A stretch of DNA of 60,551 bases, filler included, from Basidioascus undulatus (taxonomy: Eukaryota): NCBI GenBank assembly GCA_000826855.1. It is 8 parts of 8 records of this genome, joined end to end, with 100 filler letters (N's around TTAATTAATTAA, not from the genome) between each part and the next. Parts side by side here need not be neighbours in the genome. Positions count along the whole stretch, not along the records: positions 7,599 to 15,085 come from JTLS01001542.1; 7 more parts are not named here. One strand, written 5' to 3'. A model generated the notes under the pieces. The model saw only the letters and a program-made list of their open reading frames with translations, had not been told where the DNA came from and searched no databases. How positions within the stretch are numbered: position 1 is the stretch's first letter; every line of letters starts with the position of its first letter. This document shows positions 10,261 to 15,085 of this stretch, piece by piece. The translations under genes and the position numbers were made by a program.

Positions 10261-11959
10261 TCAAATGCCCTCCTCCAACATGTCCTCCAACCGCTGCCGG
10301 TCCTCCTCGTCCTTCAACTCGCGCGCAATGATCTCCAGCCCCTTCCCTCCCAAGAACGCCTGCAAGTCCGGCACAGGCCTGGCAAGACGATGGTCCATGA
10401 CGCGGTCCTGTGCCCACCAAACCACATCAACTTACTTATCCTACACAATACTCAACACGTAGAAGCGAAGGTATAGGGGGACGCACATGAGGATAGTCGT
10501 ACGACCGCACCTTCTCGTGCATGTCCAGCCTCGAGATCTGCTGTCGCCGCCCGCGCTGGCGCTCGGCGGCCTCCGCTTGCAGGCGGCGGTCGAGCAGGCG
10601 CGCGCGCAGGATTTGGAAAGCCTTGGTGCGGTTCTGGGAGGCGAGGAGAGAAATGATGTCAGAAAGCGGGAGGGGAGAGTGCGGTGAAGGGAGGAAGGGC
10701 TTGCTTGGTGTTGGGATCGCGTGTCTTGCATGGAGACGACGATGCCGGTCGGGAGATGGGTCAGGCGCACGGCACTTTCGGTTTTGTTGACATGCTGATG
10801 CGAAAGGAAGGTGACGGGTTATCAGCATCGAATGTGAATCGTGACGCGGAAGAAATTGAGTCCCACTTGACCGCCTGCGCCTCCTGAGCGCATGACGTCC
10901 ACCTTAACGTCCTTCTCGTCCAGGACATCGTCGGATGCCGAACCACCTTCCACAATCGGGAAGACCTGTAACAGAACCTACAGGCGATGAGAAACAGCCT
11001 AGCGAAATCCGCTGCATGGACGGAAAAGAACGTACCATAACGCCGACCGTGCTAGTCTGCATGGTGCTGTTCTTCTGTCTCAAGAACCGGTGGACGCCCC
11101 TCTCCCACCTGAACCCCTCCCACGCGCCCTCGCCCCGCACCTCGACCATCGCCTTCTTGAGCGCGCCGCCCGCGTCGCCGGCCACAAGGCCGAACTCGTC
11201 CGCGCGCCACTTCATCGCGCTCGCGTGCCGCGTGTACATCCGCAACATGTCCGTGAGCAGCATCGTGCTCTCCAGCCCGCCGACGCCAGCTTGCAGCTCG
11301 AGGAGCGCGCCTTGCGCGGGAAGCCCGGACGGGACGAGGGAGAGAACGAGGGAGGGGAGGGTGGAGAGCGTGGTGGAGAGGGAAGCGCGCAGGGAGGGGA
11401 GGTCTTCGGACGCGAGCGCGCGCAGGTCAGGGTCGGGGTCGGACTCGATCAGGGAGAGAGTTGAGCGCAGATCCTGCGGATGTCGATGAGTCGGCCTCAG
11501 CTGCGTGTCCAACGGCAGGACTGATTGTTTCCACCGTAGGGCCTTACCTCTTCTTGGGATCGGAGTTTATCCCAAATGTCAGAGAGATCTTCGAGGTCTT
11601 TCGCTCGTTTCGCCTTGGCGATCACTTCTGGCGAAGAGGCGTCGACAGCGTCTGCCTAGGTCAAATTGGTATCAGATAAACGTCAACTTAGGACTCAAGC
11701 TGCCGTGAACACGCACAGTCTCGGATAGCAGTCGTGTCCGCTCATCCGCCAACCGTTTTACGAGGTCCAGTAATCGCCCATCGACCCCTTCGCCGATCGA
11801 ACGCAGTATGCTAGCACTGGAGGGTTGCGAGCTCGACGACGCCTTGGCGAGCGAAAGAAGGGGACGAGAGACGGATACGATCGAAGCTCTCGAAAGCGGA
11901 ATATGAAGTGATGGCCGAAGCTTCGTTAGTCTACTGCAACATGATCGAAGCGAAAGCAT
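10261..11959 (-). CDS. Mitochondrial class-1 peptide chain release factor (RF1/Mrf1 family) with atypical stop-codon recognition loop
   Basis: Presequence [15 protein letters not shown], then [58 protein letters not shown] and DRVMDHRL. All exons splice in frame and the stop TGA is at 10261-10263. Confidence 0.92.
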
Positions 11960-12113: not shown

Positions 12114-12907
12114 ATGTCCATCCTCCGGCCGTTTCGTGCAACGGACCTGTTTTCTTTCAACAACATGTGCGCATCTTCAAAGTGAAGTGCGGGAGCCGTT
12201 GAGACTAATCACTGGGTTACAGTAACCTCGATTACTGGACGGAGACTGTGCGCCGCATACTCAGCTTCCTGCACAACTCTCGAGCTAACGTCTTTAGCGC
12301 GAATGCAGTACAGTCTCTCCTTCTACCAAAGCTACCTAGCGACATGGCCTGAGCTCTGTGTCGTAGCGGAGCACCCCTCCTCGACGCTCATGGGCTACGG
12401 TGCGTCCACTCCCTCGCCAACCCCTGCGCGCTCTCTGAAGGCGCGCCCTCGACAGTGATCGGCAAGGTCGAAGGCCGCGGGACGGACTACCACGGGCACG
12501 TCACCGCGCTGTCCATATCGCCCTCGCACCGGCGCATCAACCTCGCGACGGTGCTCATGGACGTGCTCGAGCGTGTGTCGGACGAGATGCACAAGGGGTG
12601 GTTCGTCGACCTCTTCGTGCGCCTCAGCAACGCGACGGCGATCGGGATGTACAAGCGGCTCGGGTACTCCGTGTTCCGAAGAGTGGTGGGCTACTATGGG
12701 GATGATGAGGACGCGTATGGTGAGCATGCTCCTTTGATGGCTTGAGGATTGCCTGAGCGGGCGGCATGGGGTTCTTCGTTACTGATGCTGACGCTGATGC
12801 TGCACTCCGCAGATATGCGAAAACAGCTATCGCGGGATACGAAGAAGATCAGTATACGGGATAATGGCGAGGACGTTCGGGTGTCACCAGAAGAGGTGGT
12901 ATTCTGA
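12114..12907 (+). CDS. NAT3: N-terminal acetyltransferase B catalytic subunit (Nat3/Naa20)
   Basis: Spliced reading gives MSILRPFRATDLFSFNNINLDYWTETY, GKVEG...HGHVTALSI, FVDLFVRLSNATAIGMYKRLGYSVFRRV and EDAYDMRKQLSRD. Four GT-AG introns. Confidence 0.96.
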
Positions 12908-13351: not shown

Positions 13352-15085
13352 CTATGCTCCCCGGCTCTCCCCCTCCCTCCCCCCCTCCGCCTTCCAATCA
13401 CCATCCCCCATCCCCCCTCCATCCGCGTTCTCATCCACCCCCTTACTAACCACCGCCCCAAACTCATCCAGCTCCACCTCCACCACAACCCCAATCTTAG
13501 CCATCTCGTCCCGCACGCGCTCCGCCTCCTCGCGCTCCCGCGTGCGCGCTGCGACCTTCTCGCGCTCGCGCTCCGCCTCGCCGGCGCGCGGGGAGCCGAC
13601 GAAGGCGTAGGAGTCGGTGTAGGTTGGTCCGTCCAGGGATGGCGGGCGTGGAGGGGGGGAGGTGGAAGAGGTGCTGGGAGGAAGGCGCGTCCACCGGGAA
13701 AGTACGGCGGAGGACTCGGAGACCCACCATTGGTTGATTTTGAGCCAGTGCATTGCTAGGGTGGTGTTGTCTAGGGTCACTTGGTTCCAGTCCCTGTTCC
13801 ACCCGCGCATTCATCAGTCACCTTCCCATGAAGGAAGGAGGCAAGGAGGATGGAAGATGGAGAGGAAGAGAGGGTGGAAGGAAGGAGGACGCACCCCATC
13901 TTCCACCCGTTATCGACGCGCTCCACCAGCTCGGGCGGGTACAAGCCGCGCAAGTTCTGGAGCCACTGGCCCGTGCGCGCATCCTCGACGCCGCGCTCGT
14001 GGTACGGCTCCATGGGGGACGAGCCGAGCCAGGCGACCTGTGCCACCGCACCCACTAGCTCAGTATCCCGCCAGAGAGAGCGCGCGTCGGGAGAATCGAG
14101 AGAGATGGTGAGAATGGGGAGAGTGGGTAGGGAGTTGGCGTACAAGAGGCCAGCTCAGCCCGTACGAGAGCCCGCGGAAGTACTCGGGGAAGTGCTGTGA
14201 GCGCCCGGCGGAGGTACCCCAGTAGACGTTGGACTCGCAACGAAGCGAGCGGAGCGAGCGCAGGACGGCAGGGAGGATTAGGAGGGTCTGTGTGCGTGTT
14301 TGAATGGAAAAGAGAGGCGCGGGGGCCGGGGGAAGGTCAGCAGATGGAGGTTAGGGTAGAATGGAGGGTGGGAGAGGCGGACATCGTCGTCTGCTTTCCT
14401 GAGGTCGGGAAGGAGGAGAATGAGTGAGAGCAAGAGGTGATGGGGAGGGGGAAGAGGGGACGCACAAAACAAATTGGGGTGTCTTCGGGCGGTCCTTCCT
14501 CAGCCCGCGCCTCGCCAACCACCTCAACCACGCCGCCGTCTTCCCGTCGTCCATGTTTTCCTCCTCCTCAAGCACCACAAGATCCCCGTACCTCTCCCCC
14601 TCCCTCTTAGTCATCTCCTCCAGCTCCTCCCTGCTCATCCAGCTGCCATCCTCCGCCTTCTCCCCCTCCCTCTTCGGGGACCCGGCAACAAAGTTCCACT
14701 CCACGCTCCCATCGTCCGGCATGAGCGGCGACTGCCCCCAGAGGAGACGGATGAGCGCGCGCCGCTCGTGCTTCGCGGCGGTGGTGAAGATCCCGATTGA
14801 GACAAGGGGGGTGTCGGGGGTTGTGTGTCGCGGACACGGGTAGTGAGAGGGAGGGGGGGAGGCGAGCAGCCCGAAAGAGGGCTCTTCAAACGACCGCGGG
14901 GGGACGGAGGCGTTGGAGAGGCTGTAGGGCGGGAGGTAGGGATCTGGGTCTGGCGCGGGCGAGTGGGTGAGAGCGTGGTGAAAGAGGAAGAGGAAGAGTG
15001 CGGTGGGCAGGAGGAGGAGGGCGAGGATTGTGCGGGTGGATTTGACTTTGAGCTGGAGGACATCAACCTGAGTGAGTTTCCCCTT
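13352..15085 (-). CDS. Glycosyltransferase family 31 (galactosyltransferase-like), 5'-truncated
   Basis: IGIFTT...RRALIR, RYGDLVVL..ENMDDGKT, FVLKADDD (DxD), YFRGLSYGLSW, VEDARTGQWL and MHWLK appear in GT31 motif order. Confidence 0.85.

Follow-up and report, generated by a model that had tools for sequence, protein, structure and literature searches.

Bacterial PrfH, a homolog of release factors (RF), has recognition elements that are non-canonical, differs in domain make-up and comes with an operon partner; a role in rescue has been proposed for it. Organellar release factor paralogs that have lost their recognition motifs are also known; how such losses begin is rarely seen. Here, we analyse a gene of the RF1/Mrf1 type at positions 10261-11959 (minus strand) of a 60,551-nucleotide (nt) stretch of DNA from Basidioascus undulatus (GenBank assembly GCA_000826855.1), made of eight parts joined end to end with filler and referred to below as the window. 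The loop with which such a factor reads stop codons is scrambled in this gene. The reading that we favour, with roughly even confidence, is that a basidiomycete-like yeast has two copies of MRF1, that this gene is the one which recently lost codon reading, and that it is now a decaying duplicate.

The obvious standard of comparison is fungal Mrf1 (mtRF1a), which the window protein resembles in its PCRF and RF-1 domains, its GGQ motif, its helix alpha-5 tip, its presequence-like N-terminus, its length and its clade. It departs from fungal Mrf1 in a loop that is four residues shorter, in the loss of P-x-T and of the glutamine of V-Q-R, in a change of H to Q, and in three further conserved sites changed in the stretch covering the switch loop and domain 4. 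Duplicates of organellar release factors commonly lose motifs, on the account given in PMC3472500. Vertebrate mtRF1 is likewise described as a mitochondrial RF1 duplicate that keeps GGQ, has an altered loop and stands alongside a canonical copy (PMC3472500, PMC9613700), and it terminates COX1 translation (PMC9613700). However, it is reported to have a longer, conserved PExGxS loop together with an insertion in helix alpha-5 (PMC3472500), whereas the window protein has a shorter loop and a canonical tip, and its loop is unconserved and apparently of frameshift origin. The mtRF1a proteins of C. elegans and others that carry PxN are, like ours, natural RF1 proteins with a shortened recognition loop; as described in PMC3472500, these loops, which have evolved repeatedly and are reported active, retain the proline and an N able to form hydrogen bonds, whereas the window gene has lost the tripeptide entirely. 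If functional, the window protein would by analogy resemble ICT1/Pth4 and C12orf65/Pth3, GGQ hydrolases that act without reading stop codons, although these are described as being without PCRF and codon-recognition domains (PMC3472500) and our protein keeps domains 1, 2 and 4. In S. pombe, loss of Mrf1 is reported to be tolerated, with Pth4 compensating (PMC3919214).

A different kind of precedent bears on how the loop arose. In compensatory frameshift pairs, two insertions or deletions (indels) of a length not divisible by three jointly restore the frame and leave the stretch between them in a new one (Biba, Klink and Bazykin 2022, PMC8935012). The window loop is similar in that, between its two putative indels, it matches the ancestral protein in another frame. 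Known pairs are reported from less conserved regions and genes (PMC8935012), whereas the window pair would lie in the most conserved functional loop of its family, and it is drawn from one genome rather than from a multi-species DNA alignment.

The shortened loop and its origin

The loop stretch (11036-11104, minus strand) lies in exon 3 (11473-11036), which runs across it uninterrupted. Between G-x-H-R and the final S of (H/Q)-T-S there are 12 residues, with neither P-x-T nor S-P-F among them. As a comparison set we took the best 150 of 2494 matches from an exhaustive search of 1.84 billion representative proteins. In 118 of these 150 the loop has 16 residues, with the consensus V-Q-R-V-P-A-T-E-S-S-G-R-I-H-T-S, the P being present in all 118 and the T in 114; two have 15 residues, and the other 30, which fall outside the loop pattern, are fragments or GTH variants. 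A 12-residue loop was found in none of these best 150 of 2494 matches. The sequence-only reading had described an RF1/Mrf1 factor lacking both PxT and SPF, with a loop some four residues short that a missed intron could not explain, and all three points stand: PCRF, RF-1 and an intact GGQ accompany a loop without either motif, the loop has 12 residues instead of 16, and it sits inside a continuous exon on which the transcript contigs described below agree.

MAFFT sets the four-residue gap over V-P-x-T. In place of V-Q-R-V-P-x-T-E-x-x-G-R the gene has a scrambled segment, F-L-R-Q-K-N-S-T (11063-11086, minus strand), delimited by MAFFT, three-frame translation and the loop profile. The codon-reading tripeptide is gone, the adjacent conserved Q is lost and the conserved H is now Q. 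By the P-x-T criterion the predicted product is not a canonical RF1.

Such a loop could in principle be an artefact of assembly or sequencing, and we compared it with contigs of three runs from two studies, X1 and X2 (DNA) and X3. The last is labelled 'DNA?' and we treat it as RNA-derived because its contigs lack all six introns at GT/GC-AG borders; X1 and X2 are possibly the window's own source and do not count as independent support. The loop letters showed 0 differences and 0 gaps in all three, and the consensus error that would have restored VQRVPxT did not appear. Since the DNA contigs and the spliced, RNA-derived contigs agree letter for letter, an assembly error does not account for the loop. 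Nor can two copies joined into a chimera yield new words spanning the deletion sites. We found no point in favour of an artefact and regard it as barely credible.

Three-frame translation suggested where the odd residues come from. In the +2 frame, positions 11067-11087 (minus strand) read V-L-E-T-E-E-Q, which aligns to V-P-x-T-E-x-x, canonical loop positions 4-10, with P to L as the sole change. Against a profile built from the 118 loops this remnant scores +4.0 bits, and the in-frame 7-mers of the loop score -9 to -38 bits; over six frames of the window, 8 of 100,494 7-mers reach +4.0 bits, the remnant itself counted in. The old frame is kept as far as CAC CG (H-R) and is back from ATG CAG ACT AGC (M-Q-T-S; 11051-11062, minus strand, by three-frame translation), which corresponds to the canonical (I/V/M)-H-T-S save for a Q in place of H. 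When codons are counted against the family consensus, with 30 nt of the second copy visible for comparison, the gene is 10 nt short at the first junction (V-Q-R and one further base) and 2 nt short at the second. Neither number is divisible by three; their sum, 12 nt, is. The CCT to CTT change behind the old-frame P to L is a silent Leu change in the present frame (CTG to TTG), and, of the 9 nucleotides that are fixed for V, P, T and E, 8 are preserved, so that the old frame remains legible.

The best explanation of F-L-R-Q-K-N-S-T, in our view, is that it lies between two compensating deletions and is read out of frame. As a rough estimate, since the old frame can still be read, the event is probably not ancient, and the loop would have been canonical until then. 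Because the odd loop appears to be an out-of-frame reading of canonical V-P-x-T-E, it has the look of a lesion of fairly recent date and not of an alternative reader that evolved. In the mechanism that we propose, the ancestral copy would have carried a canonical V-P-x-T-E recognition loop until fairly recently. It would then have suffered at least two frameshifting deletions. Around 10 nt would have been lost just after the H-R codons, taking V-Q-R and one base, and around 2 nt within the G-R codons, restoring the frame with 12 nt gone in all. The roughly 25 nt between the deletions would then be read out of frame as F-L-R-Q-K-N-S-T, scrambling eight residues.

Alternatively, the loop may have arisen by one in-frame 12-nt deletion of V-P-x-T together with several substitutions, the +2 match being due to chance. 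The MAFFT alignment of the loop takes just that form, and the profile test, at about 1 in 10,000 per 7-mer, is strong but not overwhelming given the registers and frames in play. This route would, however, require a deletion and, within eight residues, no fewer than five replacements at sites that are near-invariant, whereas the two-deletion route needs only two indels and a single substitution, itself silent in the new frame. We therefore hold the single deletion to be improbable.

It is also conceivable that the gene still encodes a working, if weakened, stop-codon reader, in which a short loop element such as Q-K-N or S-T contacts the first stop-codon base in the manner of the shorter P-x-N loops found in some mtRF1a proteins. 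C. elegans RF1 loops that are two residues shorter and carry PxN are reported functional (PMC3472500), and H to Q at H-T-S is tolerated in the fungal matches P0024 and P0039. The window loop, however, is four residues shorter, is without a proline and has lost the invariant Q of V-Q-R; its sequence would come from a change of frame and not from selection, and its in-frame peptides fit the loop profile poorly (-9 to -38 bits). Residual decoding of this kind seems to us decidedly improbable.

Other non-canonical loops were seen among the eukaryote-like RF1 matches: P-V-M replaces P-x-T in P0021, P0025 and P0052, P0024 has P-E-N with Q-S-S, P0080 has a 15-residue P-V-N loop, and P0150 has an odd 15-residue loop.

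A second copy and the spliced transcript

The DNA run X1 contains a separate contig of 3355 nt with a depth of 18.4, against 16.7 for the window's own contig. It shares with the window gene the stretch at 11094-11131 (minus strand; 33 of 38 letters in the comparison of run contigs), a stretch common to the second-copy contigs of X1 and X3. Past the shared 38 nt the 3355-nt contig is unlike the window, and its 30 loose letters, read as their reverse complement in the frame of the gene, give V-H-R-V-Q-R-V-P-A-T, then G-A. The RNA-derived contigs of X3 hold the same V-H-R-V-Q-R-V-P-A-T continuation. As read from these letters, the same organism has a canonical, PxT-bearing gene of the RF1 type, which is also found among the RNA-derived contigs. 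This second-copy contig end was not seen in X2, where a 66-kb contig has two 18-nt matches that seem to be due to chance, and a tblastn search of the window yielded no second or tandem RF1-type copy within it. All six comparable third codon positions differ between the two copies (over 30 nt, a tiny sample), and the two are therefore neither ordinary alleles nor duplicates of recent date.

In X1 as in X3, the contig of the second copy stops at 11131, and the X3 contigs of the window gene break at 11150/11151. Such breaks are what is expected of an assembly graph if the two copies have an identical stretch in common just upstream, which hints at closely similar copies, or at gene conversion, in that region.

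The presence of the canonical copy bears directly on one explanation put forward in the sequence-only reading, namely adaptation to a changed mitochondrial stop-codon set, under which this gene would be the main Mrf1 of the organism. Stop-codon usage in organelles does tend to co-evolve with release factors, as described in PMC3472500. Here, however, a canonical PxT copy is present in the same runs, the RNA-derived contigs included, and the loop appears to be a frameshift product. Since a canonical copy exists, we now disfavour adaptation to an altered stop-codon set and consider it very unlikely. The paralog proposed in the same reading is, on the other hand, borne out by the V-H-R-V-Q-R-V-P-A-T sequence in these runs, whereas its supposed neofunctionalisation received no direct support.

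The transcript contigs brought a further irregularity to light. Introns 2-6 are removed in the X3 contigs exactly as modelled, the GC-AG intron included. Intron 1, modelled at 61 nt (11656-11716, minus strand, with a TAG acceptor at 11658-11656) so as to keep the frame, is instead removed from the RNA-derived contig as 65 nt (11652-11716, minus strand, CAG acceptor 11654-11652; X3 joint 11651 to 11717). The 65-nt form meets a stop at codon 91, whereas the 61-nt form is open for 423 codons. Among the assembled contigs the frame-keeping 61-nt form was not found, and the 65-nt form is the only one assembled. Two assertions of the sequence-only reading consequently hold in part. The presequence-like N-terminus, the helix tip, the GGQ domain and the junctions of introns 2-6 are intact as it had stated, but intron 1 is not, being 65 and not 61 nt long. 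The gene was also said not to look like a pseudogene, which agrees with an open genomic frame of 423 codons but not with an only assembled transcript that stops at codon 91.

At the end of intron 1 the two acceptors, TAG and CAG, stand in tandem 4 nt apart (11652-11658), and the contigs show use of the downstream, frame-breaking CAG only. The other five acceptors of the gene are all CAG.

Conservation beyond the loop and the fate of the duplicate

For the state of the rest of the protein, we used 56 columns that are each at least 90% conserved in 25 full-length homologs; P0030 was dropped, its gene call reading through an intron, and P0002, a duplicated bacterial fragment, was left out. The window protein differs at 13 of the 56 columns, and the other fungal-clade rows at 0-6 of about 57. 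In the loop, 8 of 14 conserved columns are changed or deleted, an excess over the rest of the conserved columns (p = 0.0015). Elsewhere in domain 2 there are 2 changes in 12 columns, just after the helix tip, and 3 in 11 columns in the stretch of the switch loop and domain 4 (R364M, T370S and N372D, all in exon 6); the placement of these three rests on an alignment to Thermus RF1 261-308 and is not a residue-by-residue mapping. The switch loop itself is defined as amino acids 291-307 in E. coli numbering in 10.1101/226837. The GGQ domain has 0 changes in 17 columns and domain 1 has 0 in 2. Compared with the eight fungal-clade rows (the mean among those rows being given in brackets), the identity of the window protein is 37% (41%) in domain 2, 72% (67%) in domain 3 and 33% (42%) in domain 4, the last being below every other row (41-45%). 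In the tree the protein falls within a fully supported mitochondrial/fungal clade of nine rows, adjoining P0020 (SH-aLRT 94), and its end branch of 0.82, against a median of 0.63, is unremarkable.

We favour decay because the loop seems to have been canonical until recently, because its new residues look accidental, and because there is a second lesion-like feature in the acceptor of intron 1. On this reading, normal termination at UAA and UAG would be carried out by the other, canonical copy, and the scrambled-loop copy would no longer read stop codons specifically. It would be a relaxed duplicate heading towards a pseudogene, still transcribed, with its assembled transcript broken in frame at intron 1. 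Its product, if made in full, would keep the putative presequence, domain 1, the tip of helix alpha-5 and the conserved GGQ domain.

Several observations weigh against decay or against the steps that lead to it. The gene is transcribed and spliced at all six introns in the X3 contigs, and the genomic open reading frame (ORF) is otherwise intact over its 423 codons, without a stop or an uncompensated frameshift. Contigs keep the commoner path and drop minor variants, so that a productive 61-nt form of intron 1 may exist. The conserved GGQ columns are unchanged, domain 3 has a high identity to the fungal rows, and selection for a full-length protein could account for a frame restored within about 25 nt. 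The two-deletion model has no DNA alignment with an ortholog or a full paralog behind it, and the second copy is known from just 68 nt. Finally, all runs possibly come from one strain, which bears on whether the change is fixed in the species.

Some of these points lend weight to a retained gene, in which a compensated frameshift was followed not by decay but by the expression of a full-length, codon-blind GGQ hydrolase that rescues stalled mitoribosomes, an outcome that we find doubtful but worth taking seriously. In its fuller form, as a neofunctionalised paralog, the protein would be made at full length from a minor or condition-dependent 61-nt form, imported into mitochondria, and act as a stop-codon-independent peptidyl-tRNA hydrolase on stalled or non-stop mitoribosomes. 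It would then be an analogue of ICT1/Pth4 at full length, or would parallel vertebrate mtRF1 independently. The pattern of change is what such a function might leave: all 17 conserved columns of the GGQ domain are kept, that domain being slightly more conserved than in other fungal rows, while the decoding parts contain all 13 changes, of which the loop has 8, the residues after the tip 2 and the switch-loop/domain 4 stretch 3, and no other fungal row has so poorly conserved a domain 4 (33% versus 41-45%). The frame was regained after the first deletion, the gene is expressed, and a canonical copy is there to cover normal termination; organellar RF paralogs that lose motifs are, moreover, a known outcome of duplication on the account in PMC3472500. 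However, domain 3 does not differ significantly from the other non-loop regions (0/17 versus 5/25, p = 0.07), the assembled transcript is frame-broken, and the legible old frame points to a loop that was canonical until recently and to new residues that are accidental. No ortholog with the new loop conserved was found: nothing similar appeared in the word-index, exhaustive or metagenome searches. We regard a neofunctionalised paralog as possible and hold it tentatively.

Whether the duplicate is decaying, as we favour, or retained, the legible old PxT loop in another frame and the canonical copy form a natural before/after pair, and the pair offers a test of an RF1 body with an intact GGQ after the codon reader has been lost. 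It would also illustrate that, under the cover of a duplicate, a compensated frameshift can hit an essential-type factor in its most conserved loop. Should the gene be doing no more than decaying, it is an ordinary pseudogene at an early stage and a warning for annotation, since its ORF looks intact. If codon-blind rescue is true, the gene would be a newly arisen fungal equivalent of paralogs of the vertebrate mtRF1 or bacterial PrfH type, caught just after the switch.

Gene structure, relatives and neighbourhood

The gene runs from ATG to stop in seven exons, which in the frame-keeping model are open for 423 codons. The X3 contigs confirm five of its six introns; by type, five are GT-AG and one is GC-AG. 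Exon 1 (11717-11959, minus strand, as are all of the exons and introns here) holds the presequence-like N-terminus, recognised by residue composition, together with the beginning of domain 1. D and E are absent before residue 57, and the first 56 residues hold 8 R/K and 18 S/T; by composition alone, this N-terminus looks like a mitochondrial presequence. A stretch K-R-x-x-E-R-x-x-L-L in exon 1 matches, by eye, the fungal sequences P0011, P0013 and P0023. Exon 2 (11548-11655), which starts at 11651 in the assembled transcript, belongs to domain 1. Exon 3 (11036-11473; P0001) carries PCRF, the helix alpha-5 tip and the recognition loop, as placed by Pfam and solved RF1 chains; PCRF (PF03462) matches it at 81.2 bits against a cut-off of 24 (E = 1.2e-22), and solved RF1 chains match at 9.1e-14. 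The tip itself, G-V-G-G-L-E (residues 180-185; 11270-11287), is retained, with the conserved G180, G182, G183 and E185 kept.

RF-1 (PF00472) spans exons 4-6 and includes the GGQ. Exon 4 (10867-10965; gene model and Pfam) has G-G-Q at its end (10875-10867), with an X3 joint from 10963 to 11034 and the cut at +2. Exon 5 (10705-10794) is the core of the RF-1 domain, at 49.1 bits against a cut-off of 35 (6.4e-13). Exon 6 (10487-10633) includes the stretch aligned to the RF1 switch-loop region (Thermus RF1 residues 261-308). Exons 4 and 6 match RF-1 at adjoining profile positions, each below the cut-off because each is a mere piece of the domain. Exon 7 and the stop codon (10261-10407) follow the gene model and the X3 contigs. 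Judged from these domains and its place in the tree, the gene belongs by descent to the class I release factor RF1/mtRF1a (Mrf1) family. Intron 5 (71 nt, 10634-10704), with a GCAAGC donor and a CAG acceptor, is a genuine GC-AG intron, since an X3 contig removes exactly those 71 nt (joint 10633 to 10705; CT..GC on the plus strand). An upstream TAG acceptor for intron 3 (10966-10977), which would add an in-frame V-L-L-Q, was considered and is not used in the X3 contig.

Word-index searches returned no close ortholog of exon 3 (0 of 4254 candidates in the 'longer' and 0 of 180 in the 'near' search), none of the 2494 matches of the exhaustive representative search exceeded 49% identity, a metagenome scan gave 594 pattern matches and 0 relatives, and the ESM Atlas gave generic PCRF clusters only. 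Our literature searches turned up no description of a fungal Mrf1 paralog without PxT; for Cryptococcus mtRF1a a PAN motif is reported, and the available portion of that paper mentions no fungal duplicate (Duarte et al. 2012).

As a control for sampling we used the neighbouring gene, which encodes Naa20, the catalytic subunit of NatB. It starts at 12114 (plus strand) and lies head-to-head with the RF gene, the two start codons being separated by 154 nt. For its exon at 12458-12718, identity to the top database proteins is no more than 61-67%. Because even this highly conserved exon reaches no higher identity, we attribute the shortage of close orthologs to an unsampled lineage and not to a peculiarity of the RF gene. 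The window also holds 616 N in several short masked or gap runs, for example near 14351, 15138, 36795 and 45450. The top named matches of Naa20 are mostly from Sporobolomyces and Rhodosporidiobolus, yeasts of the Sporidiobolales, with Microbotryomycetes sp. lower down, and a placement in Pucciniomycotina would be compatible with these matches.

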